Part shown: positions 4,151-60,837 of the stretch, piece after piece
How positions within the stretch are numbered: the first letter of the stretch is position 1
Layout of the letters: each line of letters begins with the position of its first letter
From: an uncultured Bacteriovoracaceae bacterium
GTDB taxonomy: Bacteria; Desulfobacterota; Desulfomonilia; UBA1062
Direction of reading: 5' to 3'
DNA: 64,000 nucleotides
NCBI GenBank assembly: GCA_964600235.1
Contig: CAZRIV010000008.1
Span: 7,683 to 71,682, forward strand
The notes under the pieces: model-generated
Told to the model about the DNA's origin: nothing
The model's database searches: none
What the model saw: the letters and a program-made list of their open reading frames with translations, nothing else
Made by a program: the position numbers and the translations under genes

Positions 4151-4316
4151 CAACTGTTCTTGCAACAGGCGGCTCTGGAGGCAGGAACATAATCATCCCT
4201 GTCTTTTTATGTTTCTGCGGGAAAAAATGGGGCTTTGCCGTTAATGCTACTGCTATGTAAACGATGTGTCCAAGATCCTCAAAGGTCTCATGCTAGGGAT
4301 TCGCCCCTTGAAATAC

Positions 4317-10351: not shown

Positions 10352-10960
10352 TCAGTCGGATTCCATGGAGGTCTTCCATACCTCCCAGACCTTGCCCACG
10401 AGGTCGGGCCCGGGTTTGAGCGTGAGCTTGCCCGGTTTCCAGCCAGACGGCGTGGCCTCGGTGCCCTTGCTGTTCCGCACATACTGGAAGGCCTGGATCT
10501 GGCGGAACGTCTCGCTCACGTTCCTGCCCACCGGCGGGGTGAGCACCTCGTAGCCCTGGATGACACCGTCCGGGTCGATGAGGAACCTGCCGCGCATCTC
10601 CACGCCGGCGTCCGGGTCGTACACCCCGTATACGCTCCCCACCCGCCCTCCACCATCTGCGAGCATGGCAAAGGGCACTCCGCCCTTGACCATCTTTGAA
10701 AGCTCGTGGTCGTTCCACATCTTGTGCACGAACACGCTGTCAACGCTCATGGAGAAGACCTCCACCCCGAGCTTGACGAATTCAGGATATCTCTCGGCAA
10801 CTGCCGAGACCTCGGTGGCTCAGACAAAGGTGAAGTCACCCGGGTAGAAGCAGAGCACCACCCACTTGCCGAGATAGTCGGAAAGCTTCACCTGCACGAA
10901 CTTGCCCTTCAAATATGCCGGGGCAGTGAAATCAGGGGCCTTGCCCCCCACCTTGATCAT
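10352..10960 (-). CDS. Peroxiredoxin (AhpC/TSA family) with in-frame UGA (putative selenocysteine) at the peroxidatic-Cys position; UGA at 10820-10822
   Basis: The two listed ORFs (10820-11236 and 10352-10765) are in the same frame. Read-through gives ...[16 protein letters not shown][UGA][35 protein letters not shown]..., which aligns to AhpC ...FYPADFTFVCPTE..., so the UGA sits exactly on the Cp. Strong RBS (AAAGGAGG) 8 nt before ATG 10960 ([11 protein letters not shown]...). A SECIS-like hairpin lies 10 nt downstream of the UGA. The resolving Cys is replaced by Ser (TPSGWKPG vs VCPAKWKEG). Confidence 0.75.
10788..10812 (-). promoter_or_regulatory. Putative bacterial SECIS hairpin for the peroxiredoxin UGA
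   Basis: On the mRNA: UGA-GCCACCGAGG-UCUCGGC-AGUU-GCCGAGA. This is a perfect 7-bp stem starting 10 nt after the UGA, with a 4-nt apical loop containing GU. Confidence 0.45.
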
Positions 10961-11143
10961 AACCTTTGCCTCCTTTCGTGGACCCTCCTGTACGGGAGGT
11001 GCAGCCTCAGGTTCCCCGCCCACCGGCCCGCCTGTCGGCCTGGCGCACCCTGCCTTGATCTCTTCAGGCATAACGAACCTCCTTTCCTGTGCATCTCTGT
11101 ACATGAAACCGGCCCCCGTATGCTGAAAGGGACCTGTTTTATG

Positions 11144-11158
11144 ATTCAATACATGAAT
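11144..11158. promoter_or_regulatory. Inverted repeat ATTCA-N5-TGAAT in the prx promoter region (candidate PerR/Fur-family operator)
   Basis: Perfect 5+5 inverted repeat inside an AT-rich Fur-box-like context (TTATGATTCAATACATGAATAA), between the divergent prx and perR genes. Confidence 0.3.
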
Positions 11159-11229
11159 AAGTATAGCCCTTACATGCTCAAAGGCAATACCCGGAGCAAC
11201 GATAATTTGACTTATAAAGCAAGAATCTC

Positions 11230-11280
11230 TTGACATCCTGATAAGAAATAGTTAGATTTTTTAAATAATCATTCTTCATA
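11230..11280 (+). promoter_or_regulatory. Putative sigma-70 promoter of perR (TTGACA-17-TAGATT) with a Fur-box-like site AATAATCATTCTT immediately downstream
   Basis: Perfect -35 TTGACA at 11230-11235, a 17-nt spacer, then TAGATT at 11253-11258. AATAATCATTC at 11264-11276 resembles the Fur/PerR half-site ATAATCATTATC, consistent with autoregulation. Confidence 0.4.
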
Positions 11281-11310
11281 AACCGTATGCCACGAACGAG
11301 GTGAGAGCCC

Positions 11311-11769
11311 GTGAAACAACACCAGAGCGCCACACAGTGTTCCCGGCGTCTTGAGCAGATGCTCTCCAAGCTGAAAGAGCGGAGCTACCGCCTCACGCCC
11401 CAACGCATGGCCGTGCTCGAGATCCTCGCATCCAGCGAAGGACACCCCACCGTTGCCCAGGTCTATGAAACGGTCAGGGCCAAGTTCCCCACCACGAGCC
11501 TTGCTACGGTCTACAAGACAATCATCCTCCTGAAGGAGCTGGGCGAGGTCCTGGAGCTGGGCTTCCCGGACGGCAGCAACCGCTACGACGGCGCCAGGCC
11601 GGAGCCCCACCCCCACATCATCTGCACGAGGTGCAGAAAGATCATGGACCCTGAGCTTTCCAGCATTGACCACCTCAGCGAGGAGATGAAGAAAAAGACC
11701 GGCTATGCCATCGAGTACCACCGCATGGACTTCTTCGGCCTCTGCCCAGCCTGCCAGAAAGGGAACTGA
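11311..11769 (+). CDS. perR: Fur-family transcriptional regulator, PerR-like (peroxide-responsive repressor)
   Basis: Fur-family fold: winged-helix N-terminus (LTPQRMAVLEILA...), a C-terminal metal site with CTRC...CPAC. It lies divergent to the peroxiredoxin and directly upstream of catalase. GTG start. Confidence 0.85.
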   Translation: MKQHQSATQCSRRLEQMLSKLKERSYRLTPQRMAVLEILASSEGHPTVAQVYETVRAKFPTTSLATVYKTIILLKELGEVLELGFPDGSNRYDGARPEPHPHIICTRCRKIMDPELSSIDHLSEEMKKKTGYAIEYHRMDFFGLCPACQKGN

Positions 11770-11885
11770 TTTTTTTTCACTTTACTTAAGAATCATTATC
11801 CGTTAATAGTGATATTCTTCTAAGCTTGATTATCATCCTGAGCCTATTACTATAGCAAAGGTCCATACAGAGAAAGGAGGACGAA

Positions 11886-13370
11886 ATGGCGAAAAAGGAA
11901 AACCCGAACAAGGATAAAAAGAAACTGACTACCAGAAGCGGCGCACCCGTGGTGGACAACCAGAACGTTCTGACCGCCGGGCCGAGGGGGCCTCAGCTCT
12001 TGCAGGATGTCTGGTTCCTCGAGAAACTGGCCCACTTCGACCGGGAGGTGATCCCTGAACGGCGCATGCACGCCAAGGGGTCCGGGGCCTATGGCACCTT
12101 CACCGTCACCCATGACATCACCAGGTACACAAAGGCCAAGATCTTTTCCAGGATCGGCAAGAAGACCGACTGCTTCATCCGCTTCTCCACCGTGGCGGGT
12201 GAACGCGGGGCAGCGGACGCTGAGCGGGACATCCGCGGTTTCGCCATGAAGTTCTACACCGAAGAGGGCAACTGGGACCTGGTGGGCAACAACACGCCGG
12301 TCTTCTTCCTGCGCGACCCGCTCAAATTCCCTGATCTGAACCACGCGGTGAAGCGCGACCCACGCACCAACCTGCGGAGCGCTCTGAACAACTGGGACTT
12401 CTGGACTTCCCTGCCCGAGGCGCTCCACCAGGTGACCATCGTCATGAGCGACCGGGGGATACCAGCAACCTACCGCCACATGCACGGCTTCGGGAGCCAC
12501 ACCTTCAGCTTCATCAACGCGAAGAACCAGCGTTACTGGGTGAAGTTTCACCTGCACACGCAGCAGGGCATCAGGAACCTCACCGATGAAGAGGCCGAGG
12601 CCGCCATCGGCAAGTGCAGGGAAAGCCACCAGCGCGACCTGTACAATGCAATCGAGAAAGGCGATTTTCCCCGCTGGACCTTCTCTGTCCAGATCATGAC
12701 GGAGAAGGAGGCCCAGGCATGCCCCTACAACCCCTTTGACCTGACCAAGGTCTGGTACCACAAGGATTATCCGCTCATCGAGGTGGGTGTTCTGGAACTG
12801 AACCGCAACCCGGAGAACTATTTTGCCGAGGTGGAGCAGTCCGCCTTCAACCCGGCCCACGTGGTCCCGGGCATCGGCTTCTCGCCGGACAAGATGCTCC
12901 AGGGCAGGCTCTTCTCCTATGGCGACGCCCAGCGCTACCGCCTGGGCGTAAACCACGACCAGATCCCGGTCAATGCGCCACGCTGCCCCTACCACAGCTA
13001 TCACCGGGACGGCGCCATGAGGGTGGACGGCAACTACGGCAGCACGCTGGGCTACGAGCCCAACAGCTTCGGCGAGTGGCAGGAACAGCCCGAGTTCAGC
13101 GAACCGCCGCTGAAGCTCTCGGGAGATGCCTACCACTGGGATTTCCGTGAGGACGATGACGACTACTACACCCAGCCGGGCAAGCTCTTCCGCCTCATGA
13201 CCCCCAAGCAGAAGAAGGCGCTCTTCGAGAACACGGCCCGGGCCATGGGCGACGCCCCCAGGGAGATCAAGTTCCGCCACATCAGAAACTGCTTGAAGGC
13301 TGACCCGGCATACGGCAAGGGCGTGGCCGACGCTCTGGCCATTGACCTGAAGAAGGTGCCCAAGGACTAG
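11886..13370 (+). CDS. katA: Monofunctional heme catalase
   Basis: Canonical catalase motifs (RERIPERVVHAKG-like [34 protein letters not shown], a distal His and a proximal Tyr region), 494 aa. RBS GAAAGGAGG lies before the ATG. Confidence 0.97.
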
Positions 13371-13396: not shown

Positions 13397-13434
13397 GCGG
13401 CAGCAGGCTCATGCCAGCTGCCGCCTGTTTTTTA
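13397..13434. terminator. Rho-independent terminator (bidirectional, between convergent katA and the radical-SAM gene)
   Basis: GCGGCAGC-12 nt loop-GCTGCCGC followed by CTGTTTTTTAT. Confidence 0.6.
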
Positions 13435-14445
13435 TACGCAGCCTCCGTAGAAGCGCGACGGCCCGTCCAGTACGTCCCACCCGCACTCTGCAAAGAGGTT
13501 CCGACAGCTGGCCACGGTCTCTCCCCTGCCCTCCTCGGTCTTTTCCCGTACATCCCGGGGGTTGGCACCCACTTCTGCCCAGAACAGGTTGGCACCGGCA
13601 ACCCCTCCCAGCGTGCAGGGCTCGTGGGTGCAGTTGCCGGGCACGGTCCTGGGCATACACAGCCTCGTGATGGCCACGATCTGGGCCATACGGAGCTCGG
13701 TGATGGTGCCGAGCCTTGCCATCTCGGTGCCCGGGATGGGGATGCGCCTGGCCGCCCCGCTGTAGGCAGGGTTTACGGACGCTGTGTACAGAATCAGGTC
13801 TGCGAGCTCTTCATTGGTATGCTCGGGGCCCACCGGCTCCACGCAGGTGCCCACCACCAGGCCCGCCTCCTGGAAGTTGCGGATGCTCTCCCTGCGCTTT
13901 TCCGGGGACAGCTTCGAGTCGATGCCCTCCCGCAGGCGTAAGGCGTGGTACACCCCGGTGATGCCGGCATCCTTCATCCGCCTTGCAGCCTCGTACGTCT
14001 GGTCTCCCACGTTGGCGATAAGGATGGTCTCTTCCCTGAGGTTTTTCCCGATCTCCCGGGACATGTCCAGGAACAGCTCGAAGGGATACTTGGCAGTGGT
14101 CATGACGAACACGGCGTTGGCGCCGTCGTACTCGAACTGCCGCGCATAGGCCACGGCCTGCTCCGCTGTAAGCCGGGTCTCTTCCTGAAAGACATTGTTC
14201 ACGCGGGCAAAGGAGCAGAACCTGCAGTCACCCGGACAGGGCGCCAGGTTGAGCGCCAGCTGGGCGTGCACCTCGGCCTGGTTGCCGGTGAGCTCCTGGG
14301 AGATGCGCCTTGCCTCGGCCATGACGAGGTACGATTCCGGGGAGTCAGGCCGCAGGCCCAGGAGGTCGATGAGATCCTGCCTGGATGGCGGCACGTGGTC
14401 TTTGCTTTTTTCGATCAGGTCGTGAATGTTCATGGATATCCTCAT
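13432..14445 (-). CDS. Radical SAM protein (BioB/HydE/ThiH-like, CxxxCxxC)
   Basis: The CPGDCRFCSF motif sits ~65 aa from the N-terminus. A TIM-barrel-length protein (337 aa) with additional C-terminal Cys residues. Function cannot be assigned from sequence. Confidence 0.85.
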   Translation of the reverse strand: MRISMNIHDLIEKSKDHVPPSRQDLIDLLGLRPDSPESYLVMAEARRISQELTGNQAEVHAQLALNLAPCPGDCRFCSFARVNNVFQEETRLTAEQAVAYARQFEYDGANAVFVMTTAKYPFELFLDMSREIGKNLREETILIANVGDQTYEAARRMKDAGITGVYHALRLREGIDSKLSPEKRRESIRNFQEAGLVVGTCVEPVGPEHTNEELADLILYTASVNPAYSGAARRIPIPGTEMARLGTITELRMAQIVAITRLCMPRTVPGNCTHEPCTLGGVAGANLFWAEVGANPRDVREKTEEGRGETVASCRNLFAECGWDVLDGPSRFYGGCV

Positions 14446-14516
14446 ACCAATCAGCAGATGACTCCATACATATCAAGTTTCAGATCCCGTGCAAGGTCTT
14501 TTCTCATAGACGGTAA

Positions 14517-14840
14517 TCACAGGGGGTCAGTGCCCTGGTATTTTTTCCGGTACATCCGGTACGCAGCAGGGATGAACAAGACCACCACGATGAGCGCCGC
14601 ATCCACCGTGCTCAGCCCCCGAATGGCGTTCTACATGAAGTCCGCATGGCCAGGAACGTCCCCCAGGCTGACCTGCACGCCCAGGGTTAGCAAAAGCGGG
14701 GCGATCCCGAATTCCATGGAAAGACCGCAGCGCTTCTCCTCCTTCATCCTGTCCGCGTCGATACCGGTCAGGGACCTCACGAGGCTCGTCTTGCAGTGAT
14801 CAACATGGCCGGAAACGCCTATGGTAACGATCCGTGACAT
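14517..14840 (-). pseudogene. selB: selB (selenocysteine-specific elongation factor) N-terminal remnant, degraded
   Basis: MSRIVTIGVSGHVDHCKTSLVRSLTGIDADRMKEEKRCGLSMEFGIA...DVPGHADFM[TAG]NAIRGLSTVDAALIVVV then divergence and TGA. It matches the SelB G-domain (GHVDHGKT, TGxDxDRLxEEKxRGISIELGFA, DxPGHExFIxNM, LVVAADEG). It has P-loop G->C, an in-frame TAG, and is cut to ~108 codons where SelB is ~630 aa. Confidence 0.6.
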
Positions 14841-14916: not shown

Positions 14917-15008
14917 TGGAAGGGGCAAGGGGAATCGAACCTCCTCCCCGTGTGTTAGCCAGGGCTGACAGATTTGAAGTCCGCGGGGTGCCCAGCATAG
15001 TTGCCCCT
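14917..15008 (-). tRNA. selC: tRNA-Sec (selC), anticodon UCA, 92 nt including encoded CCA
   Basis: The minus-strand sequence AGGGGCAA...GCGGACTTCAAATCTGT...GGTTCGATTCC...TTGCCCCTTCCA has an anticodon loop CUUCAAA identical to E. coli selC. It has a 7-8 bp acceptor stem (AGGGGCAA/TTGCCCCT), a T-loop TTCGATT, a ~23-nt variable arm, discriminator U and CCA. It lies 76 nt upstream of the selB remnant. Confidence 0.75.
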
Positions 15009-15105: not shown

Positions 15106-16383
15106 TTATTTGAGCATCTCAACGAAGGCCTCGACCCGGGTCCTGAGCTGGCCCACGTCCTCCATGCTGTAGTCTGTCTCGATCCGCAGGGTGGGTATGC
15201 TGTTCTTCTTGAGCTCCTCGGCCACCGGGATGGACTCCATCAGATAGGGCTGGCAGAACTGGAGTCCGTAGTGGATGACCCCATCGGCCTTGTATGTCTT
15301 AACCATCTCTTCCACATGCTTCAACCGGTCAGGGTTCGGGGTGAAGATGGCGCAGTCCACCTGGAAGTAGCGCTCCACGATGGCGTCCATCAATCCATCT
15401 ACCGTACCGGCCGAGCCGTCCACCAGGTTGCGGGTCCCCCGTTCGCCCACACAGGACTCCTCGCCCACGATGACCGCGCCCGAGGTCTCCACGATCCAGG
15501 GCAGCTTCCAGTTCGGCACGGCCATGGGGCAGCCGGAGATGAGGATACGAGGTGTACCTGCGGGGAACACACCCTGCTTCTGCGCGATGCGCATCTCCAG
15601 CTCATCGCAGATCTTGTTCACGGAGTCCGTGAACCTCCTGGGATTGTCGTAGAAATAGACCTGGTTGGCCAACAGGGCGTCAACACCCGATATGGGCGCC
15701 GGGTCCGCCTGGCGAAGCCTGGACAGCCGATGAATGGCCCTGCGCTTGTTGTTCACGGTTTCGATGGCCTCCTTGAGGCCCAGGGCGTCAATGGTCACAC
15801 CGGTGAGCTTCTCAAGGGCCTCTTTAAACTTCAGGTACTCGGCCTTGAGCAATAACCGCCCCTGGGCTGATTTCATCTGGGGAAGGTCCATCACATAGAG
15901 ATTTGACACCAGGGGGCCAAGGGACTCGTAGGCCTTCTTCTTGCCGTCGCAGGTGTTCTCACCCACGATCATGTCCGAGGCCTCCAGATAGGGGCAGACC
16001 TTGCCCAGCTTGAACCCGAAGCTGGACTTGATGAGCGCGCAGGTGTTTCGTGGCAGGAGCTTCTCCACCTCTTCCAATGCGAAGTCTGCGCCCGAGCACA
16101 GCCCCACCAGGGTAGCGTTCGCCGCCAGGACGATCTCCTCGGGCACGTACACACAATAGGAGCCGATGATCTTGCGACCTGCCTTCTTCTCGTCCAGGAG
16201 TTCCCTGATCCGCAGACCATGCACCTCACTCATGACGAAATCAAAGTACTGCATACCTTCGGGTCGGTTTTTCTGCGACAGGTGAATGTCCTTATAAAAA
16301 TTCCCCAAAACCCCAAGAAGCGCGTCGTGGGCAGTCAGGTCAAGCCCCAGATCCTTCCACATGCTGCGATAGTCTTCACCCAT
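15106..16383 (-). CDS. 2-hydroxyacyl-CoA dehydratase family protein (HgdB/HadC/BcrB-like subunit), orphan
   Basis: 425-aa protein with conserved Cys ligands for the dehydratase Fe-S cluster and family-typical overall similarity. No partner A-subunit or activator is adjacent. Confidence 0.8.
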   Translation of the reverse strand: MGEDYRSMWKDLGLDLTAHDALLGVLGNFYKDIHLSQKNRPEGMQYFDFVMSEVHGLRIRELLDEKKAGRKIIGSYCVYVPEEIVLAANATLVGLCSGADFALEEVEKLLPRNTCALIKSSFGFKLGKVCPYLEASDMIVGENTCDGKKKAYESLGPLVSNLYVMDLPQMKSAQGRLLLKAEYLKFKEALEKLTGVTIDALGLKEAIETVNNKRRAIHRLSRLRQADPAPISGVDALLANQVYFYDNPRRFTDSVNKICDELEMRIAQKQGVFPAGTPRILISGCPMAVPNWKLPWIVETSGAVIVGEESCVGERGTRNLVDGSAGTVDGLMDAIVERYFQVDCAIFTPNPDRLKHVEEMVKTYKADGVIHYGLQFCQPYLMESIPVAEELKKNSIPTLRIETDYSMEDVGQLRTRVEAFVEMLK

Positions 16384-16713
16384 GATGTTCCCTCTCTCTT
16401 CAGGTCAGATTGAATTGTTATTCAGTTGCATACGGCATCATATGGGCATGCTTAAATGAATAAATCAAATTCTAATATTGAATGGTTCCTGCATGATTAT
16501 TCAATGATAGCATTATGATACACGACGACAAAAAACCACTTTGAAAAGACTATTTATCGGAACACCGATGTTGATGCTCATGTTTCAGTTTCATGCACAA
16601 ACATATACCACGAATGTCGTAACAATATCTTTACTGTCTTGATTTATAAGACCCCTGAATTATCTTTCTGAAAAAGGGATATCTTATCCCGATTAAAGGG
16701 AAAGGAGTAAGTC

Positions 16714-16923
16714 ATGAAATATGGGGCACGCAACACCATCAAGGCAAAAGTTAAATCCGTGAAAAAGGGCGATGTCATGTCCCTGGTGAAGTTCGAGGCC
16801 ATCAGCGCTGCTGAGATGGCGTCAGTCCTCACCACCGAATCGGTGGAGGGCATGGAACTGAAAGCGGGGGATGCCGTGCAGCTCATCATAAAGGCCATCC
16901 ACGTTCTGCCGGTCAAAGAATAA
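16714..16923 (+). CDS. mop: Molybdopterin/molybdate-binding TOBE-domain protein (Mop, molbindin)
   Basis: 69-aa single TOBE domain (SARNTIKAKV..., here GARNTIKAKVKSVKKGDVMSLVKFE). RBS AAAGGAAAGGAG. Confidence 0.85.
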   Translation: MKYGARNTIKAKVKSVKKGDVMSLVKFEAISAAEMASVLTTESVEGMELKAGDAVQLIIKAIHVLPVKE

Positions 16924-17095
16924 CTAACCTGACAGCGTTTGGAAGGTGCATCCCGCACAGGGTTTGAGCCTGGTTTCGTCTATGAGCGTCCTTGGGAAGT
17001 ACGCCGGTTTTCGTTGTATCGATTTTGAAGATCCTCTCTGCCGAGCGCACACCCATGCTGTGTTCGCCTGCCAGGCCTCTTTTCGTACGCACTGT

Positions 17096-17584
17096 TCATG
17101 AACGGAGCGTAGCAATCAGACGTTTCGGATTTCGAAGCAGATCCAGGGCATCGAGAATGTCGGAGGCTACTATGTCGGCACTTGCCAGTGTAACCGCAGA
17201 TGCCCCTTCCTTTTGAATCAGCGCAATACCGATAGCAGCTTCACTCAGCATTTTCCTGTCATTGAGCCCATTGCCGATGGCGACAACGGTTTCTACCCCG
17301 AGCTGAGATATGAAATCAAACTTTGCTTGAGCCTGGGACTCAACCGGGATAACGGTAAGTTGCACAGGTAATCCGTGAAGCTGGTTTGCCGCCAGGCCGA
17401 ACGTGTCAGCCGTGATTACATGTATCCGGATGACGGTCGAAAGCGCAGCAAGTGCGTCACACACACCGGGAAGCAGTTTTCCGTCCACTGCAAGGGTACC
17501 GTTGAAGTCGCATACAACGTGTTCTATATGAACATTGCCAAAGCCTGGTATATTGACGTCTATCATACTGGTCTCATGAAGCAC
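17096..17584 (-). CDS. HAD-superfamily hydrolase (soluble P-type-ATPase-like HAD domain)
   Basis: Motif I VCDFNGTL. The C-terminal AIGNGLNDRKMLSEAAIGIAL...ADIV resembles the hinge/HAD motif III of P-type ATPases. 11-nt overlap with nifS. Confidence 0.8.
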   Translation of the reverse strand: MLHETSMIDVNIPGFGNVHIEHVVCDFNGTLAVDGKLLPGVCDALAALSTVIRIHVITADTFGLAANQLHGLPVQLTVIPVESQAQAKFDFISQLGVETVVAIGNGLNDRKMLSEAAIGIALIQKEGASAVTLASADIVASDILDALDLLRNPKRLIATLRS

Positions 17585-18719
17585 TACGCAGTCTGATCGC
17601 TGCCGAGGCCACTACATCGACGGCCCGATCGATCTGGGCAACGGTGGTCATCCGGCCAATGGAAAATCGCAAGGTCCCCTTAGCCCATTCGATCGGCACC
17701 TGCATGGCCTCAAGCACATGGGAGACGGTAACAGTGCCGGCATGGCAGGCGGCTCCGGCCGAGGCGGCGACTTCAAGCCCGATCTCCTCCAGCAGGCGAT
17801 TGGACTCGATCCCACTGAATGACAGGTTGAGGGTGTTGGGCAGCCGGTGTTCGGGGTGGCCGTTGAGCCGCACATCTGCCACCCGTGAGGAAATACCCTT
17901 ATGCAGCCTTTCGCGCAGGTCCCTCATGCGGACCATGCTGCCGGACAGTTCTCTTGCCGCTATCTCGCAGGCCTTGCCCAGGCCCACAATCCCAGCCACG
18001 TTCTCCGTACCTGCCCTCCATCCCTTCTCCTGCCCGGCGCCGTGGCAGAACTTCTCAGGCGCAAGGCCTTTCCGTACATAAAGTGCCCCCACGCCCTTGG
18101 GCGCATACAGCTTGTGGCCGGCAACGGAGAGAAGATCAACACCGAGGGTCGACACATCGGCCGGGATCTTACCAATCGACTGGGCGGCGTCGGTGTGCAT
18201 GGCAATGCCGCGCGCCCTGGCCAGTTCGGCAACAGCCGCTATGGGTTGCACCGTACCCACCTCATTGTTTGCATGCATGACCGTAATCAGGATGGTGTCG
18301 GGGCGCAGGGCCTGTTGCACCTGCGCGGGTTCGAGCATGCCCTGGGCGTCCACGGCCACCTTTGTGGTTTCAAATCCTTCACCTTCAAGGTGCCTGCATA
18401 CTTCCAATACTGCCGGGTGCTCAATGGCGCTCGTGACGATGTGTCTGCCTTTGAGCTTGAGCGCCCGGGCCATACCCTTTATCGCATGGTTGTTGGATTC
18501 GGTTCCTCCGGAAGTAAAGAAGACCTCTTCGGGCAGACAGCCGAGCAGACCGGCCACCTGCCGCCGCGCTGACTCCACGGCCTGCTTCGGCATGATGCCA
18601 TACCAGTGGGAACTGGACGGGTTGCCGAACTCCTCCTCCAGAAAGAGCCGCATGGCGGCAAGCACTCCGGGGTCGAGGGGTGTTGTACCGTTGTAATCAA
18701 GGTAGATAGGCCTGGTCAC
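17574..18719 (-). CDS. nifS: Cysteine desulfurase (NifS/IscS-type class V aminotransferase)
   Basis: N-terminus IYLDYNGTTPLDP, PLP Lys region ...SVAGHKLYAPKGVGALYVRKG, and an active-site Cys loop. Confidence 0.9.
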   Translation of the reverse strand: MTRPIYLDYNGTTPLDPGVLAAMRLFLEEEFGNPSSSHWYGIMPKQAVESARRQVAGLLGCLPEEVFFTSGGTESNNHAIKGMARALKLKGRHIVTSAIEHPAVLEVCRHLEGEGFETTKVAVDAQGMLEPAQVQQALRPDTILITVMHANNEVGTVQPIAAVAELARARGIAMHTDAAQSIGKIPADVSTLGVDLLSVAGHKLYAPKGVGALYVRKGLAPEKFCHGAGQEKGWRAGTENVAGIVGLGKACEIAARELSGSMVRMRDLRERLHKGISSRVADVRLNGHPEHRLPNTLNLSFSGIESNRLLEEIGLEVAASAGAACHAGTVTVSHVLEAMQVPIEWAKGTLRFSIGRMTTVAQIDRAVDVVASAAIRLRSAS

Positions 18720-38458: not shown

Positions 38459-39478
38459 ATGCCTGAACTGAAGTTTGAACCGGAGCTCTGCGCAACGTGC
38501 ACCACCATCGACTGTGTCATGAAGTGCCAGTACATGGACCTGGACCTTGCCAGGGCAAGGGATGAACATGACCGGCTCGTGCGCAAAGAGCGTTCATCGA
38601 TCCTCACCGACTGTGTCACCTGTTATGCCTGCGAGGAATACTGCCCTTGCGGCAACCACCCCTTCTACCTCATCGTGGAGAGGCAGGAACAGCTGGACAT
38701 CCATCCCGTCCCTGTGCCCATCGAGAAATCCCAGGTGGTCATGATGGCCCCCAGGGGCAGGATCGTCCCCGAAGAGGTGCATGCCCCGGTGATCGACATG
38801 TGCTTTTTCGACATCATGAAGGCAGGCATCAGGGGAAGGCTCTTCGAAGGCGCCACCACCATAGGGGGAAGCGATGTCTTCTGCAACCTCATGTTCCTCC
38901 ACTTCGCCCGCAACTCCACCATCAAGGAGCGGCTCCCGCTGATCATGGAGAACATCATGCGTTTCCACCTGGAGCCCTCGGGCGTCTCCGAGCTCATCTG
39001 CTTCCACGACGAGTGCTACGGCACCTACACCTCCTGGGCGAAGGCCTTCGGTCTCGAGGTGCCCTTCAAACCGGTCCACTTCTTCGACTACCTCTACCAC
39101 CGTCTCGTCGAGATGAAGTCCGAGATAAAACCGCTGAACGTGAAGGTGGCCTACCAGCGCCCGTGCTCCAACCGGCTCTGCCCCGAGACCGACCACTACG
39201 TGGACGACATCTTCGGCCTTATCAGTGCCGACAGACCGAAGAGGACCTACGAGTACGGCAATGCCCTGTGCTGCGGGGGCGTGCCCGAGGCCGCCCAGCG
39301 CTTCGACCTGGTGGACGATATCAGGGGCAGGAACGTGGAGGACATGAGGGCCGCAGGCGTCCAGTACTGCGTGTTCAACTGCCCGTTCTGCTTCTGGACC
39401 CTGGCAGAGCCCGTGGCCAAGGCGGGTATTTTCCCCATCATGATGTCGGACCTGTGTCTCATGGCGCTTGGGGAGTGA
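38459..39478 (+). CDS. (Fe-S)-binding protein, ferredoxin + CCG (Cys-rich) domains (GlcF/LutA/HdrD-like)
   Basis: CATCTTIDCVMKC and CVTCYACEEYCPCG, then a CCG-domain CCGG motif. RBS GGGGAGG. Confidence 0.85.
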   Translation: MPELKFEPELCATCTTIDCVMKCQYMDLDLARARDEHDRLVRKERSSILTDCVTCYACEEYCPCGNHPFYLIVERQEQLDIHPVPVPIEKSQVVMMAPRGRIVPEEVHAPVIDMCFFDIMKAGIRGRLFEGATTIGGSDVFCNLMFLHFARNSTIKERLPLIMENIMRFHLEPSGVSELICFHDECYGTYTSWAKAFGLEVPFKPVHFFDYLYHRLVEMKSEIKPLNVKVAYQRPCSNRLCPETDHYVDDIFGLISADRPKRTYEYGNALCCGGVPEAAQRFDLVDDIRGRNVEDMRAAGVQYCVFNCPFCFWTLAEPVAKAGIFPIMMSDLCLMALGE

Positions 39479-39487
39479 GGAGAGATC

Positions 39488-40876
39488 ATGGAACGTTCGG
39501 CGATAATCAAACGGCTGAAGGCCATCGTGGGCGATGCCTGTGTCTCGGATGCCCCCGAGGAACTCTTCATCTACTCGCGGGACCAGGGGGTCCAGGAACC
39601 TCACCTGCCCGACTGGGTAGTCATGCCGGCGAGCACCGGCGAGGTGGTCTCCATCCTGAAACTCGCCTCCCGGGAGAAGATCCCGGTGGTGCCCATGGGC
39701 GGAGGGCTCGTGCTCTCGGGTCTGTCCGTGCCGCTGCAAGGAGGCATCGTGCTGGACATGAAGCGCATGAACCGCATCCTTGAGGTAAATGAGCACAGCC
39801 ACTACGCGGTGGTGGAGGCAGGGACCTCCCAAGGTATGCTCGATGCCTATCTCAGGAAGCATCACCCCGGCCTCAAGCACTCGCTGCCCGACGCGCCTCC
39901 TGGGGCCACCGTTGCGGGAAACATCGCCATCCACGGCTCCGGACACCTCTCCCAGAGCGAGGGCGGGTTCCACTCCGAGATGGTCACCGGGCTCGAGGTG
40001 GTGCTCGCGAGCGGCGAGGCCGTGAAGATCGGCTCGTGCTCCACCGTGCCTGCCTGGTTCTCCCGGGCACCCCTGCCCGACCTGGCGGGCCTGTTCCTCG
40101 GCTGGAACGGCACCACCGGTGTCATTACCAAGGTGGGCATCAAGCTTTTCCCCCGTCCGAAGCACCATGATGTCCTGGTCTACATGACCGAGGACATCGA
40201 CCTGGCCCCGTTGGTGCTTTCCCGGGTGATCGGCACCTCCATGGCCGAGGACATCAACTACGCCCTGGCGCCCAAGCCGGACTACCTGAACGGTTTCCAG
40301 ATGACCGTGATCAACTTCACGGCCGCCTCCGAGGACGAGCTCACCTTCAAACGCAAGAAGCTCCGCTCGGTGATGAAGGACCTCTACGACACGAAGAGGT
40401 CCGGGTTCATGCCCATACCCCCGAACATGAAGGCGGGCTTCCTCGAGGCGCCCCAGAAGGCCCTGAGCAAGTTTGCCGACGTGCGCAAGGGCGGCGGGTT
40501 CGAGTATGTGGGCGCCATCATGCCCATCGAGAAGATCCCGGATGCCTGCAGGGCGGGCATGGCCATCACGGCGCGGCACAACATCACCTACTCATTGGGT
40601 TCCCGCATCATCGGGCGCGGGCACGCGGCCATGTTCTTCTTCGCCTACCCCTTCAACCGGGTGGACAAAGATGAGGTGGAGCGGGTGAAACAGGCCCTGG
40701 ATGACACCAACGAGACGGCCCTGGCGCTGGGCGGCATCCCCTGGAAAACCGAGGTGCAGGGCCAGCAGCTCATCCTCAAACAGATGGACCCAGCCACACG
40801 TGCCCTCATCAAGCGGATCAAGGGGGTCCTCGATCCGGACGGGATCATGAATCCCGGCAACTGGGAGGTGGCCTAG
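39488..40876 (+). CDS. FAD-binding oxidoreductase (GlcD/D-lactate dehydrogenase family FAD-linked oxidase)
   Basis: FAD_binding_4 domain (VVPMGGGLVLSG...) plus the C-terminal FAD-oxidase_C domain. 462 aa. Confidence 0.9.
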   Translation: MERSAIIKRLKAIVGDACVSDAPEELFIYSRDQGVQEPHLPDWVVMPASTGEVVSILKLASREKIPVVPMGGGLVLSGLSVPLQGGIVLDMKRMNRILEVNEHSHYAVVEAGTSQGMLDAYLRKHHPGLKHSLPDAPPGATVAGNIAIHGSGHLSQSEGGFHSEMVTGLEVVLASGEAVKIGSCSTVPAWFSRAPLPDLAGLFLGWNGTTGVITKVGIKLFPRPKHHDVLVYMTEDIDLAPLVLSRVIGTSMAEDINYALAPKPDYLNGFQMTVINFTAASEDELTFKRKKLRSVMKDLYDTKRSGFMPIPPNMKAGFLEAPQKALSKFADVRKGGGFEYVGAIMPIEKIPDACRAGMAITARHNITYSLGSRIIGRGHAAMFFFAYPFNRVDKDEVERVKQALDDTNETALALGGIPWKTEVQGQQLILKQMDPATRALIKRIKGVLDPDGIMNPGNWEVA

Positions 40877-42037
40877 ATGGACAGTGCATACCGCGACATC
40901 CTTCACAGGTGCTTCCGCTGCGGCTGGTGCAAGTTCCCGCTCAACTATACCGACTTCAACTGTCCCGCCTATCTGAAGTTCCGCTTCGAGTCGTTCTCTT
41001 CGGGCGGCAGGATGTGGCTCATCAGGGCATGGCAGGACGGAGAGATCGCCACCAGCGAACGTCTCGGGCAGATCCTCTTCTCGTGCGTCACCTGCAGGAA
41101 CTGCGTGGAGGCATGCGCCATACCGGGCATAAAGGACAAGCTGGTGGACGTGTTCATCGAGGCTCGCTCGGACATGGTGGAACAGGGCAGGATACCGCCA
41201 AAGGTGAGGGACTACTTCAAGGCCATCAGCGTAAACGGCAACCCCTACAAGATGCCGGCTGGTGACAGGGGGAAATGGTCTGACGGCCTCGGACTGGACA
41301 GGTATGAAGACCAGGAATATCTCTTCTATGTGGGGGACGAGGGCGCCTTTGACGAGATGGGCCAGAGGATGGCCCGGTCCGTGGCCACGCTCATGAAGCG
41401 GGCCGGGTTGTCTTTCGGCGTCATCTTCGAAGACGAACTCACCGACGGCAACGACGTGCGCGCCCTGGGTGAGAAGGGCCTGGCCGCATACCTGGCCCAG
41501 CAGAATATCGCGCTCATGATCGCTCGCGGGGTGAAAAAGGTCATCACGCTGTCCCCGCATGCGTTCAATGCCATGAAGAACGAATACCCCGCCCACGGCT
41601 CGACCATACACGTGGAGCACTACACCCAGACGTTGCGGCCCCTTATGGGGAGCCTCGGCGCCGGGGCGTCCACCGGCAGGGTGGTGACCTACCACGACCC
41701 CTGCTACCTGGGTAGGTGGAACAACGAGTACCTCGCCCCACGCCAGATCCTGAAATCCGTCAAGGGGCTCAAGCTCGTGGAAATGGACAGGGCAATGAAA
41801 AACGCCCTGTGCTGCGGGGGCGGAGGGGGCAACTTCTTCACGGACATGCTCGGCACAGGGCCTGACCTGGCGGCTCGGGCACGGGTGAAAGAGGCGCTCG
41901 CAACGGGTGCGGACACCATCGCCGTGGCCTGCCCACAATGCCTGAGGATGCTCGGAGATGCCGTGAAGGACGAAGGCGTCGAAGACATGATCCAGGTGAG
42001 GGAGATCTCCGAAATCGTGAACGAAGCCGCGCCCTGA
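40877..42037 (+). CDS. (Fe-S)-binding protein with two CCG domains (GlcF-like)
   Basis: CFRCGWCKF...CPAY and CVTCRNCVEAC ferredoxin motifs, then CCGGGGGNF CCG domains. Confidence 0.85.
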   Translation: MDSAYRDILHRCFRCGWCKFPLNYTDFNCPAYLKFRFESFSSGGRMWLIRAWQDGEIATSERLGQILFSCVTCRNCVEACAIPGIKDKLVDVFIEARSDMVEQGRIPPKVRDYFKAISVNGNPYKMPAGDRGKWSDGLGLDRYEDQEYLFYVGDEGAFDEMGQRMARSVATLMKRAGLSFGVIFEDELTDGNDVRALGEKGLAAYLAQQNIALMIARGVKKVITLSPHAFNAMKNEYPAHGSTIHVEHYTQTLRPLMGSLGAGASTGRVVTYHDPCYLGRWNNEYLAPRQILKSVKGLKLVEMDRAMKNALCCGGGGGNFFTDMLGTGPDLAARARVKEALATGADTIAVACPQCLRMLGDAVKDEGVEDMIQVREISEIVNEAAP

Positions 42038-42159
42038 AAATGCTGCACACAGCATTGTGATTTCTTAAGAAGAAGCCATTTTCTGGCCATGCTCAAAAAT
42101 ATCGGGATTGCTAATGAGAAGCTTTCCGGTTATGGAGAGATAAAATTTTGGAGAATCCT

Positions 42160-56788: not shown

Positions 56789-58027
56789 ATGAAGCATTGG
56801 CCCTTCCTTTTCATCCTGCCGGCCATGCTGTTCATTGCCGTCCCTGCAGATGCCCCTCGGGCGGATTCCAACTCCTGCGTTATCTGCCACACCGACGGTG
56901 CCAAGCTGAAGTCCCTGGTCATCCCGCCCAAGATCCACTCTGAGGGAGAGGGTTGAGCGGGTGCTCCTCCGCCGGTCCGGGCGGAAGACTACTACAAGGG
57001 TTACCTGGTGGACTCCTCTCTTCTGGAAAAGGACCCTCACCTCTCCAGGGGATGCCGCTCCTGCCACAAGGGAAATGCCGATGCCCAGGATAAGGACGAG
57101 GCGCATAAAGGCATGCTCAAGCGGCCCTCCGACGACCTCGCTACCTGTGGAGGCAAGTGCCATGGGAAGATCGCCGCAAACTATGCCAAATCTCTGCATT
57201 ACACATCCCTGGGCCAGAGGCAGGGGGTCATCCCCCGGTTCTCCAGGGCCGAGGTCAAGCTCTTCGACCAGAAGGTCTTCCAGCAGTCCTGCCGCAGCTG
57301 CCACGCCTCCTGCGGGTCCTGCCATGTGAAATCGCCCGCGGTATCGGGCATAAGCCTGGGTCTCATCAAGGGCCACAAGTTCATCAAGAAGGACGAGGGC
57401 AAGACCTGCGCCTTCTGCCACGGCGGCCGCGTATACCCCGAATACACCGGTGAGTACGGAGGGTCTACGGATATACACTACCAGAAGGGCATGATGTGCG
57501 TGGACTGCCACAAGAAGGTGGAGATGCACGGCGACGGCAGGAGATACCTGGGGAAGCAGGAAGTGAAAGACCGGCCGAAGTGCACGAACTGCCACAAGAC
57601 CATCAAGTCGGGCAAGCTCCGCGTACAGGTGGCCCACGATGCCCACAAGGGCAAGGTGAGCTGCTACGGCTGCCACGCCGCGGGCCAGTACCGGAACTGC
57701 TACACCTGCCACAAGGAGTCGACCTCGAAGCCCGGCTTCATCCTGGGGAAGAATCCGCGCAATCTAAAAGAGGTCACCACACTGAGGATCATCCCCACGG
57801 TACGCGACAGCTTCGCCCATGCAGGAATCAAGCAGGAGAACTACGACAGGCTTCCCAACTACTGGAATACCCCGGCACACACCATCAAAAAACGGACGGA
57901 CCGGACACGGTCTTGCGATATCTGTCATACGGAGAAGAAGGATTTCCTCACCCGGGAGACCCTTCTGAAGGACGGCTCCAAGGCCAATCAGGGACTGATC
58001 CATGTCCCGAAACCCATAACACACTAG
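56789..58027 (+). CDS. Periplasmic multiheme cytochrome c (~11 CxxCH) with in-frame UGA at 56954-56956 (candidate Sec/recoding site, or a disrupted gene)
   Basis: ATG 56789 encodes signal peptide MKHWPFLFILPAMLFIAVPADA plus a first heme motif CVICH. The sequence ...SEGEG-UGA-AGAPPPVRAEDYYKGYLVDSSLLEK... continues in the same frame into the 57008-58027 ORF, which itself lacks a signal peptide. Ten further CxxCH motifs follow. Confidence 0.55.
56968..56985 (+). promoter_or_regulatory. SECIS-like hairpin 11 nt downstream of the cytochrome UGA
   Basis: UCCGCC-GGUCCG-GGCGGA: a 6-bp GC-rich stem with a GGUC apical loop (compare the GGUC apex of E. coli fdhF SECIS) in the canonical window after the UGA. 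Confidence 0.3.
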
Positions 58028-58040
58028 ACAAGGAGGAAGT

Positions 58041-58937
58041 ATGAAACAGCTCAAAACATGTGCACTCATGATGGTGGTGTTCGCTCTCCTCATCCCGGCA
58101 GCCGTCATGGCCCGGGGAATAGATCCCATCGTCTCGACGGAATGGCTCGACAAGAACCTGGCAGACGCGAAGCTCGTGATCGTGGATATCCGCAAGGTGG
58201 AGGAGTACAACGCGGGACACATTCCCGGTGCGGTCAATGTCTTCTACAATGTCTGGGCACCAGGCAAGGGTGACATGCAGAACGAACTCCCGGCCGACGA
58301 TGACCTGAAGGATGCCCTGTCCGCCAACGGGATCGCAGCCGATTCCAAGGTGGTGGTGGTGGGTAAGACCGACACCCCGCCCGACAAGGTGAACGTCACA
58401 AGGGTAGCGCTCACGCTCCTCTATGCGGGCGTAAGCGATGTGGCTGTCTTGGACGGCGGGATGAACAAGTGGACCTCAGAGACCAAGAAGGTTTCCACGG
58501 ATGCGGTGAAGCCCAAGGCAAAGGACTACAAGGGAAAGTTCAACAAGGGCCTGTTCATCAAGAAGGAAGATGTTGCGGCCAAGATCGGCAAGGCGATCAT
58601 ACTGGATACCCGTGAGGCGCCTTTCTATAGCGGAGAGAAGAAGCTCGACTTCGTTGCCAAGCTCGGTCATGTCAAAGGTGCGGTGAACCTCCCCACCATG
58701 TCCCTGATCTTCAACGCGGACGGGACATACAAGGCAGCTGCCGACCTGATGGTCCTTGCGGCAAAGGCTGCGGGTGAGGACAAGGCAAAAGAGATCATCG
58801 TGTACTGCGATTCGGGCAGGGTGGCCTCGGCCTGGTGGTACCTATTAAAAGAAGTCCTGGGGTACAAGGACGTGAAGATCTACGACGGCTCCTTCCAGGA
58901 CTGGGCCAAGGATGCAAATCTGCCCGTAGAACCGTAA
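58041..58937 (+). CDS. Periplasmic tandem-rhodanese sulfurtransferase (Sud/thiosulfate-sulfurtransferase-like)
   Basis: Signal peptide, two rhodanese domains, and active-site Cys loop IVYCDSGRVAS in the second. Confidence 0.85.
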   Translation: MKQLKTCALMMVVFALLIPAAVMARGIDPIVSTEWLDKNLADAKLVIVDIRKVEEYNAGHIPGAVNVFYNVWAPGKGDMQNELPADDDLKDALSANGIAADSKVVVVGKTDTPPDKVNVTRVALTLLYAGVSDVAVLDGGMNKWTSETKKVSTDAVKPKAKDYKGKFNKGLFIKKEDVAAKIGKAIILDTREAPFYSGEKKLDFVAKLGHVKGAVNLPTMSLIFNADGTYKAAADLMVLAAKAAGEDKAKEIIVYCDSGRVASAWWYLLKEVLGYKDVKIYDGSFQDWAKDANLPVEP

Positions 58938-59007
58938 TGCACCAGCCGGGACGGGACAGGCACAGCCATGTCCCGTCCCGTGTACCATGGAAAGGATTGG
59001 GGAACGA

Positions 59008-60837
59008 ATGACTCGCTTGAAGGCCATACGTCTCATCTTCCTGGTCATGGCAGTAACTGTCGTGCTGCCGGCGGGCAGGTCCGACAGCGGCCAGCGGTCA
59101 TCCGCACACCAGGACATCTGGCTGCGCAACGAGACCGGCGATCGCATCACGCCGACGGACAACGCGGCAGAGCCCTACAGCCCGAGGAAGACCTGCGGGG
59201 CCTGTCACCACTACCCGACCATCGTGCAGGGCGACCACTTCCGCATGGGCTCCCCGGCAAAGAAGGCCGATCCTTCCCGGGCGAACCTCCCCCTGGAGCT
59301 TCTGCCGGGCGAAGGGCGACCCGCGCCCTACGGCGGTGCAGCGATCTATGACTGGATCGCCGCGAATGCCTCCTACCACCCGGGCGGCGGACCCATGGAG
59401 TGTCTCAACCTGCGTCCGGCCGGAGGAACACCGACGAACCTCGTAGAGGCGGAGCGCATCGTCTCCTCGTCCAGGAACCCCCATTTCCAGTCCCGCCTCA
59501 CCCCGGACGGCCACAGCCGCTTCAAGGCAAGCGGAGTCCTGGAAGGGGACTGCCTCATGTGCCACCTGAACGAGTACCGCCTTGAGCGGCGCAACGCCCA
59601 GATCGCCTCCCGGAACTACCGGTGGGCGGCCACGGCGGGCTCAGGCCTGGGCGAGGTGACCGGCCGGGTGTGGACCCCGGGCGAGGGCAAAGGCACCTGG
59701 GAATTCTCCCGCAGGCCGCTGGTGAAATACCACTGGAAGAACGGCATGTTCAAAACGGATGGCAGGCTTTCGGGACGCCTCATCCGCAAGGCGGTCTCTT
59801 CAAGCTCATGCCTGGCGTGCCACGGGACCACGCAGGCCCTCCGGACAGGGACCCTGTACCGCTCAGGCGATGATGCCCACATAAAAGCGGGCCTGCGGTG
59901 CGCAGACTGCCACACCTTGGCCGAGGCTGCACCTGGAGGCAGGCTCGGTCACCGCTTCGGCGGCTCGTCCGCATCCGGTGACTTCCGGCAGACCGGCATG
60001 AGGACCTGCGCCGACTGTCACCTGGCACAGGGGGGGCGTGCCCCCGACCCGACACTGACCCATGCGGACATGCTGCCCAATGCCACATTCCACCTGAGGC
60101 TGCTGGCCTGCACGGCCTGCCACGCCACGGCACAACCGGCAAAGGGGGCGTACCTGCTGGACCTCTCCACCGGCGCCGGACAACGGTTTACCGCACAGGG
60201 TCTTGAAGCACTCATCTCCCCGGCCGATGCCGCGAATCCCGCCCGGGAATCCTGGAGGCCCTGGCTCGCCATCTACGACCTCAAGGGATCACGCGGCCGG
60301 CGCTACGTGCCTGTTGCCCTGCACACGGCCCAGTGGTTCGGGGTGAAGGGACACAAAAACCGGATAACACCGTTGGAAGCCCCTGTGGTGGCCAATGCCT
60401 TCAGGCTCTGCACCGGCATCACCACTGCGGAGGTCAGGGACACCGCGGGGAGAAAACTCAGGATCCCCACCGTGGCCACCGAGGCCGACACGGCGAAGAT
60501 GCTTCACGCGCTGACACGCCTGGGCGTGAAGCAGGCGGTCTTCGTCTCGGACAAGGCCTATTCGCTCAAAGGCGGCAAGGTCGTGTCCTCGGAGCTGCCC
60601 TTGATCAACACCCTGAGCCTGCCGGTCTGGCACAACGTCCAGCCTGTGGCGAAAAGGCAGACCTATGGCGCCAAAGGCTGCACCGACTGCCACCAGGACA
60701 AGGCCCCCTTCTTTACGAAGATGAAGGTAAAATCCGTGGGGCGGTTCCTGAAGGACGACTACCCGGTGCCCAAGGCGCCCAATGCATCCCCCCAGATGCT
60801 GGACTGGGGTTACGAGGAAGTGCCGAGCCATGAATAG
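59008..60837 (+). CDS. Periplasmic multiheme cytochrome c (>=8 CxxCH)
   Basis: Signal peptide MTRLKAIRLIFLVMAVTVVLPA. Heme motifs CGACH, CLMCH, CLACH, CADCH (x2), CTACH and CTDCH. ~610 aa. Confidence 0.85.
   Translation: MTRLKAIRLIFLVMAVTVVLPAGRSDSGQRSSAHQDIWLRNETGDRITPTDNAAEPYSPRKTCGACHHYPTIVQGDHFRMGSPAKKADPSRANLPLELLPGEGRPAPYGGAAIYDWIAANASYHPGGGPMECLNLRPAGGTPTNLVEAERIVSSSRNPHFQSRLTPDGHSRFKASGVLEGDCLMCHLNEYRLERRNAQIASRNYRWAATAGSGLGEVTGRVWTPGEGKGTWEFSRRPLVKYHWKNGMFKTDGRLSGRLIRKAVSSSSCLACHGTTQALRTGTLYRSGDDAHIKAGLRCADCHTLAEAAPGGRLGHRFGGSSASGDFRQTGMRTCADCHLAQGGRAPDPTLTHADMLPNATFHLRLLACTACHATAQPAKGAYLLDLSTGAGQRFTAQGLEALISPADAANPARESWRPWLAIYDLKGSRGRRYVPVALHTAQWFGVKGHKNRITPLEAPVVANAFRLCTGITTAEVRDTAGRKLRIPTVATEADTAKMLHALTRLGVKQAVFVSDKAYSLKGGKVVSSELPLINTLSLPVWHNVQPVAKRQTYGAKGCTDCHQDKAPFFTKMKVKSVGRFLKDDYPVPKAPNASPQMLDWGYEEVPSHE

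Follow-up and report, generated by a model that had tools for sequence, protein, structure and literature searches.

The window, the 64-kb stretch of DNA analysed here, carries on its minus strand a real tRNA-like gene (14917..15008), tRNA-Cys-like in type and with the anticodon UCA. This gene is not selC, the gene for tRNA-Sec, but most likely a decaying relic of a selC*-selB* module, as indicated by its match to a covariance model of the selC* family (R1, built from 70 relatives) combined with alterations at otherwise invariant positions. At intact loci of this type, the tRNA is charged with cysteine by CysRS or by a dedicated CysRS*, and SelB*, encoded ~20-80 nt downstream, presumably carries it to UGA codons. 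In the window, a deletion or rearrangement would have taken selB* beyond its first ~87 codons, plus any cysS*; the remaining selB* stub would then have been hit by an early stop (TAG) and by changes of catalytic GTPase residues, and the tRNA would have gained eight lineage-specific substitutions, three breaking base pairs and two weakening pairs to G:U. The true selC presumably lies elsewhere in the genome.

A tRNA-like gene resembling tRNA-Sec

Read on the minus strand from 15008 to 14917, the gene is AGGGGCAACUAUGCUGGGCACCCCGCGGACUUCAAAUCUGUCAGCCCUGGCUAACACACGGGGAGGAGGUUCGAUUCCCCUUGCCCCUUCCA (92 nt). Its ends form an 8-bp acceptor stem, AGGGGCAA/UUGCCCCU, with A1:U72 as the first pair, followed by U73 at 14920 and an encoded CCA at 14919-14917; the T stem has 4 bp (GG-A-GG/CCCC, with a bulged A) and a UUCGAUU loop, giving an 8/4 acceptor/T domain of 12 bp in total. 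The anticodon loop is CUUCAAA, and the long variable arm consists of a 5-bp stem, CCCUG/CGGGG, that still pairs, and a 9-nt loop. The D stem is reduced to 3 pairs by U10 and A11, the sixth anticodon-stem pair is broken by A43, and the D/variable region, CAACUAUGCUGGGCACC ... GGCUAACACAC, is unique to the window tRNA. The single-sequence fold is no better than that of shuffled sequences (z = −0.49) and is not a cloverleaf. An earlier sequence-only reading had proposed this gene as selC, and the features that it described are present: the anticodon loop with UCA, the complementary ends followed by U-CCA, the T loop, the long extra arm and the length of 92 nt. It had also found the D arm hard to fold, in keeping with the 3 pairs that can form; its remark that this is common for tRNA-Sec is wrong, the D stem of tRNA-Sec having 6 bp and a 4-nt loop (PMC7609411).

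ARAGORN called 0 tRNA genes in the whole 64-kb window, an outcome that the sequence-only reading had itself named as evidence against selC. At gathering thresholds, no Rfam family reaches its score at the tRNA locus. In a permissive Rfam scan, tRNA-Sec (RF01852) is the best family, at 36.4 bits vs. a gathering score of 47 (E = 1.3 × 10−5 on 551 nt), with mismatches flagged in the D stem and at one pair each of the T and anticodon stems. R1, in contrast, scores the gene at 84.7 bits (E = 3 × 10−20), which rules out a chance match, and this is the sole match in 64 kb, with no second selC*-like sequence found by R1 in the window. Intact family members among the matches listed score 92-118 bits; the window tRNA lies below every listed full-length member whose acceptor stem and U73-CCA end are intact, and falls 28-29 bits short of its closest listed relatives, L072, L055 and L082. 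ARAGORN detects 44 of 45 listed relatives, which it labels tRNA-SeC(tca) or tRNA-Cys(gca), and misses the window copy. The Rfam tRNA-Sec model likewise places 17 of 18 relatives at 51-59 bits, vs. 36.4 bits for the window copy. Because both ARAGORN and the Rfam tRNA-Sec model accept nearly all relatives, this family is routinely mistaken for selC. Loci of the selC* type are easily mis-annotated as selC in this way, and the selenium-decoding capacity of a genome may then be misjudged.

Membership of the selC* family

Judging by its sequence, the window tRNA almost certainly belongs to the selC* lineage. The selC* tRNA-Cys class is characterized by U73, a GCA or UCA anticodon and a modified 8/4 structure in which A51a is bulged (Mukai et al. 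2017, PMC5389517). U73 is a major CysRS identity element, and a CysRS engineered towards CysRS* cysteinylates the selC* tRNA(UCA) of D. biacutus, which then suppresses UGA in E. coli, a suppression dependent on its 8-bp acceptor stem and A1:U72 (PMC5389517). The selB* gene lies downstream of selC* in Syntrophobacterales and Desulfobacterales (Mukai et al. 2017, Nucleic Acids Res 45:2776, PMC5389517), delivery of the tRNA by SelB* being inferred in the literature, and cysS* is found in some Desulfobacterales, where its presence goes with A1:U72 and UCA (PMC5389517). Together, selC*, SelB* and CysRS* constitute a rare natural second, dedicated machinery for stop-codon recoding. The window tRNA likewise has U73, UCA, A1:U72 and an 8-bp acceptor stem, as well as the 4-bp T stem with a bulged A, the long variable arm and the length of 92 nt, and a selB paralogue starts ~76 nt downstream, present as a pseudogene stub only. 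It differs from the class in that G10, G11, C39 and the near-invariant G43 are mutated and the D stem is broken, selB* is a stub of ~87 codons, and cysS* is missing.

Scanning one genome per species with a pattern that combined the bulged T arm and the anticodon loop, we identified at least 119 loci, mostly in Desulfobacterota, about 100 of which have a 92-nt homologue with U73; the closest listed relatives of the window copy also belong to Desulfobacterota. Among the matches listed, 70 distinct in-register relatives, with U73 as a selection criterion, were placed in an alignment (A1), which is gapless and has 90% mean column identity. The 8/4 cloverleaf is paired in 98.9% of the cells of A1 and shows compensatory changes at 15 of 28 pairs; 0 of 500 shuffles reached the observed values, and slid controls were also far off. 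The acceptor helix covaries in this alignment, and the T stem is invariant, partly since the search pattern demanded the T arm. In the 70 listed relatives, the D arm has a 5-bp stem and a 3-nt UGG loop, and among the loci listed both UCA and GCA (Cys) anticodons occur on the family scaffold.

A ~640-aa ORF begins 20-80 nt downstream of the tRNA in most listed loci, and full-length selB* is found downstream in 41 of the 47 listed loci whose downstream sequence extends to 3.6 kb or more. At L072, the closest listed relative of the window copy, this downstream ORF passes the NCBIfam selB model and has SelB-specific domains; the CysRS encoded after selB* matches positions 1-383 of the 466 positions of the cysS profile and is without the anticodon-binding end. 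Among the loci listed, cysS* occurs only with tRNAs that have UCA and A1:U72 (7/7 cases) and is present at 7 of the 19 such loci.

Distinction from tRNA-Sec and from allo-tRNAs

The window tRNA shares with bacterial tRNA-Sec (selC; RF01852) the anticodon UCA in a CUUCAAA loop, the 8-bp acceptor stem, the long arm and a length of ~90 nt. In tRNA-Sec, G73 and the long variable arm provide SerRS identity, the acceptor/T domain has 13 bp (8/5), and the determinant for SelA is a well-formed D stem of 6 bp closed by a 4-nt loop (PMC7609411). The window tRNA, in contrast, carries U73 in place of G73, its acceptor/T domain is 8/4 with 12 bp instead of 8/5 with 13 bp, and it has no 6-bp D stem with a tetraloop, its family having a 5-bp stem of which the window copy keeps 3 pairs; the selC* family is moreover linked to CysRS* rather than SelA, and sister genes carry GCA. 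True tRNA-Sec genes that were caught by the scan pattern, from Dehalococcoidia and Rubrobacteraceae, have G73 and a longer D stem and score 53-61 bits with R1, vs. 92-118 bits for family members.

This organism does use selenocysteine. The prxU gene (11071..10352, minus strand), 3.8 kb from the tRNA, encodes a PrxU-type peroxiredoxin (NF040737, 396 bits) with an in-frame TGA (10822-10820) at the catalytic position and a hairpin after it at 10809-10792 (UCUCGGC-AGUU-GCCGAGA). L072 and L009 both keep this TGA, and the hairpin of L009 has a different stem sequence and the same AGUU loop. Because prxU has an in-frame TGA and this hairpin, the organism decodes UGA as Sec, and because Sec decoding is thus in use, the true selC is expected outside the window. 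Among 48 scanned ORFs of the window, Pfam and NCBIfam searches found no SelA, SelD or full SelB. With a real selenoprotein gene so near, mis-annotation of the window locus as selC is tempting.

A genuine selC, whose product would receive serine from SerRS, undergo conversion by SelA and reach UGA/SECIS sites with SelB, would agree with UCA, the long variable arm, the 8-bp acceptor stem and tRNA-Sec as the best Rfam family, with the presence of prxU in the same window, and with the tRNA-SeC label that ARAGORN gives to intact UCA relatives. We nevertheless rejected the window tRNA as selC on U73, the 12-bp 8/4 domain, the D arm and the subthreshold Rfam score. Against a genuine selC there are also the close homologues with the Cys anticodon GCA on the same scaffold, the selB paralogue (and in some loci a CysRS paralogue) that lies downstream in the family, the low R1 scores of the true tRNA-Sec genes, and the complete separate selA/B/C/D set carried by all isolate genomes with selC* (Mukai et al., PMC5389517), which together leave this identity highly improbable. 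What stands of the earlier proposal is a tRNA-Sec-like gene with UCA and a long arm; its assignment to selC fails on U73, the 8/4 domain and the homology to selC* tRNA-Cys.

The allo-tRNAs, which have 8/4 or 9/3 domains and occur in Clostridia, Proteobacteria and Acidobacteria (PMC5389517), resemble the window tRNA in their 12-bp acceptor/T domain, which is non-canonical, in their long variable arm and in having anticodons able to read stop codons. Their D stem is long, as in tRNA-Sec, and ends in a tetraloop; they are presumed to accept serine and are often found near toxin-antitoxin genes (PMC5389517), whereas the window tRNA belongs by sequence with the U73 family linked to selB*, the D arm of which has 5 bp and a 3-nt loop. 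We therefore rejected an allo-tRNA on the type of D arm and on gene context.

Lineage-specific substitutions in the window tRNA

Five of the eight lineage-specific substitutions affect pairing: G10U, G11A and G43A break pairs, and C39U and C48U weaken pairs to G:U. Positions 10, 11 and 39, which lie outside the search pattern, are invariant in the 70 listed relatives (G, G and C) and are U, A and U in the window tRNA; position 43, which covaries with C24, is G in 68 of the 70 listed relatives and A in the window tRNA. The pairs 10:22, 11:21 and 24:43 are consequently broken, and 27:39 has become G:U. In the listed relatives, G10:C22 is GC in 70/70, G11:C21 is GC in 68/70, and C24:G43 is CG in 68/70 and UA in 2. 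The MFE fold of the window tRNA retains 13 of the 28 cloverleaf pairs, compared with at least 24 in 48 of the 70 listed relatives. A relative-rate test against L072, with either L055 or L082 as the outgroup, gives 8 unique changes in the window tRNA vs. 1 in L072 (chi-square = 5.44, p = 0.02), and the tRNA-selB* segment is 75.6% identical to L072, with the flanking orthologous segments at 87% and 90% (DNA).

From these sequence comparisons, loss of function of the window tRNA is quite probable, and the most likely condition is that it is non-functional or barely functional. The window tRNA shares with tRNA pseudogenes and operon relics the lost stem pairs, the faster substitution, the detector failure and a truncated adjacent partner gene, and differs from them in having a perfect acceptor stem, T arm and anticodon loop. 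Because these three elements are perfect, decay would be only partial, and residual activity is possible. All eight lineage-specific changes lie within positions 9-57 and none in 1-8 or 58-92, so placed that U73 and CCA are untouched as well; under uniform neutral decay such confinement has a probability of ~0.007, a figure subject to ascertainment bias, as the intact parts are what prompted notice of the gene.

The same facts bear on the alternative that the gene still works as a selC*-type tRNA-Cys(UCA) despite its odd D arm, being transcribed, cysteinylated and used as an opal suppressor that would, for instance, insert Cys at the Sec UGA of prxU and be delivered by EF-Tu or by a SelB or SelB* encoded elsewhere. 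This alternative fits the intact acceptor stem, A1:U72, U73, CCA, T arm, anticodon loop and variable-arm stem, the R1 score, which is still 84.7 bits, and the lack of lineage-specific changes at either end; some listed relatives keep an intact tRNA without an adjacent selB*, the TGA-containing prxU is 3.8 kb away and is likewise found near the selC* operon in L072, and D-arm-defective tRNAs work in some systems, e.g., the mitochondrial type III tRNAs. We nevertheless consider it unlikely: three conserved pairs are broken, with G10 and G11 unvarying in the 70 listed relatives; ARAGORN and the Rfam threshold reject the window copy, although nearly all relatives pass both; the predicted fold is something other than the cloverleaf; selB*, the partner transcribed with the tRNA, has been destroyed; no cysS* is found in the window, even though the window tRNA has A1:U72 and UCA, the only combination with which cysS* occurs among the loci listed; and substitution on the window branch is accelerated. 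A search of the minus strand upstream of the window tRNA found no sigma-70-like promoter, a result that carries little weight. A bolder reading, of low probability, is that the relic, with its acceptor stem, T arm and anticodon loop preserved and its dedicated SelB* and CysRS* lost, persists either by suppressing UGA with Cys at a low level or by serving as a regulatory RNA for the oxidative-stress genes nearby, which are prxU with its Sec-UGA, a catalase and a PerR-like Fur. Most likely, the window copy is an ordinary pseudogene of a known, unusual tRNA class.

The selB* stub and the flanking genes

Downstream of the tRNA on the minus strand lies a selB* pseudogene fragment (14583..14840), identified by a Pfam GTP_EFTU match on a 69-aa ORF and by alignment with 12 SelB* proteins. 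Its ATG is at 14840-14838, 76 nt past the tRNA. The 69-codon ORF (14840..14631) encodes an EF-Tu GTP-binding domain, with a SelB-type N-terminus when the stop is read through, the stop being an in-frame TAG at 14633-14631 where the conserved Lys of DFMKN stands. The P-loop GHVDHGKT is changed to GHVDHCKT, and RRG to RCG. Resemblance to SelB* extends only to about residue 87 of ~640, the similarity ending at ~14583-14587, and a tblastn search of the 64-kb window for other parts of SelB* found only residues 1-77/87. Over residues 1-77/86, the stub protein is 75-78% identical to L072 SelB*, with 10-11 unique amino-acid changes in the window stub vs. 2-3 in L072. The dN/dS of the stub is 0.24 vs. 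0.085 between intact genes, which is raised, yet not 1. A tblastn search of the window with L072 CysRS* found no cysS*.

The junction sequence between the end of the selB* homology and the next gene (14446..14582, minus strand) is unlike SelB*, CysRS* and the related loci, and blastx and blastn searches with 14441-14640 match relatives only over the first ~60 nt, which belong to selB*; we presume that the junction is the scar of a deletion or rearrangement. The gene that follows (13432..14445, minus strand) encodes a BioB-like radical SAM protein of 337 aa (Pfam Radical_SAM and BATS; weak NCBIfam bioB match) and occupies the place that the rest of selB* has in intact loci; at L049, a radical SAM gene comes directly after the HGD-D gene. 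The upstream neighbour of the tRNA (15106..16383, minus strand) encodes a double-cubane-cluster anaerobic reductase of the HGD-D family (425 aa; Pfam PF06050; NCBIfam NF040772, 474.7 bits). Among the loci listed, HGD-D orthologues with 72-86% identity recur beside selC*/selB* in many Desulfobacterota, and this recurrent linkage to one highly conserved double-cubane reductase gene may point to the physiological target or purpose of the selC* system. The best matches listed in the genome and metagenome scans are an HGD-D protein with 86% identity and the L072 flanks, whose DNA is 87-90% identical, none being near-identical to the window.

Relics at other loci and the origin of the window copy

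A metagenome scan with the HGD-D protein yielded at least 80 further loci. In both sets of loci listed, intact tRNAs with scores above 105 bits are followed by full selB*. Other listed loci show various states of reduction: L043, L101, L143 and L154 have a truncated tRNA stub only, directly upstream of the HGD-D gene and without selB*; the tRNA copy of L147 is heavily mutated (50 bits); L167 has an 89-bit copy without selB*; and at L108, selB* is cut to 111 aa and the anticodon stem is broken, this tRNA too failing ARAGORN and the Rfam threshold. A high-scoring tRNA is kept without an adjacent selB* at L049 and L117, for example; because several relatives keep a good tRNA in this way, loss of selB* alone does not doom the tRNA. 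The window locus and the relics in other Desulfobacterota show that the module has been lost repeatedly and decays gene by gene.

Rearrangement or partial duplication is a possible origin of the window relic. The gene order of the window, HGD-D followed by selC* and selB*, exists intact at L186 and L100, which makes truncation in place plausible. At L072, the intact operon is found across orf104, a gene common to both loci, so that the window is not a simple deletion of the L072 arrangement. This position across orf104 is consistent with the window copy being a recent partial duplicate, i.e., a ~430-nt piece (the tRNA and the 5' end of selB*) of an intact selC*-selB*-cysS* operon located elsewhere in the genome, in which case the organism would keep the system and the window copy would be a by-product; L093 indeed has both an intact copy (111 bits) and a degenerate one (72.7 bits). 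However, the 64-kb window holds no second copy and no other SelB or CysRS homologue, truncation in place is equally possible given L186 and L100, and at 75.6% identity to the nearest listed operon the fragment is not recent. We regard such a duplicate as possible though rather doubtful; it differs from the preferred reading only in the origin of the relic.

Other genes of the window

Two further features of the window were considered and set aside. A formate-dehydrogenase-type selenoprotein, suspected next to the Fer4_11 and cytochrome b genes, was rejected, the region consisting of four small transporter-like genes. Two large ORFs at 38594-42055 on the minus strand are antisense shadows of plus-strand glycolate-oxidase-like genes.

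Apparently recurrent decay of selC* and its annotation as selC

The selC* module appears to have been lost repeatedly, and we identified selC* relics at varying stages of decay in other lineages, both among the genome loci that were scanned for a bulged T-arm with the anticodon-loop pattern (L043:1763-1845, L101:7091-7166 and L108:2169-2260) and among the metagenome loci retrieved with the window's HGD-D protein (L143:1703-1781, L147:5838-5924, L154:6035-6110 and L167:4002-4093). Some of these relics are tRNA stubs that retain neither acceptor strand and lie immediately 5' of the reductase gene. The copy in L147 carries many mutations, and in L108 the anticodon stem is broken and the adjoining selB* is shortened to 111 aa. 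On one contig, L093, a pair of selC*-like genes (1000-1091 and 4168-4259) is separated by about 3 kb; the first to be named here of the two states is intact (111 bits with the family covariance model for one gene), and the other gene is degenerate (72.7 bits), with mismatches in the T stem and acceptor stem.

Intact selC* tRNAs of the L001-L119 set, which have U73 and Cys identity, scored 51-59 bits with the Rfam tRNA-Sec model, above its gathering score of 47, and ARAGORN calls the tRNAs of this set that have a UCA anticodon tRNA-SeC. Acceptance of selC* by these two tools is a systematic origin of false selC annotations in Desulfobacterota.

Linkage to a double-cubane reductase

The window encodes a double-cubane-cluster anaerobic reductase of the HGD-D family (15106-16383, minus strand). 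In many Desulfobacterota, this gene lies at most a few kb from selC*/selB*, either 3' of selB* or 5' of the selC* tRNA, and the copies in this vicinity are strongly conserved (72-86% identity). Among the matches listed, roughly 30 of the 119 loci from the genome scan include the reductase gene, and a selC*-like match was found in 14 of the 80 metagenome loci, which had been retrieved with the reductase itself; reductase-linked loci include L001, L011, L016, L022, L033, L050, L070, L087, L102, L127, L144, L148, L150, L169, L176 and L186, as well as others.

Genes in the neighbourhood of the relic and farther along the window

The relic adjoins an oxidative-stress cluster (10352-13370) that consists of prxU on the minus strand, and, on the plus strand, of genes for a catalase (11886-13370) and for a regulator of the Fur/PerR family (11311-11769). 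The selenoprotein peroxiredoxin gene prxU (10352-11071; NCBIfam NF040737), which appears split into two fragments in ORF lists, has an in-frame TGA (10820-10822) at the catalytic Cys position, followed 3' by a SECIS-like hairpin whose loop reads AGUU (10792-10809). Both TGA and hairpin are kept in L072, the window's nearest relative, and in the genome locus L009, where the stem sequence differs from that of the window.

Upstream on the minus strand are a small, conserved 104-aa ORF (16644-16958) and a NifS-type cysteine desulfurase (17574-18719). The ORF, for which Pfam and NCBIfam gave no match, is shared with L072 (84% identity), where its counterpart lies downstream of the selC*-selB*-cysS*-DUF1573 genes. 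A plus-strand cluster of multihaem cytochromes c with interspersed rhodanese-domain genes (57008-63417), in which one cytochrome carries a fused cytochrome b561-like domain, probably has a role in sulfur or electron-transfer metabolism.
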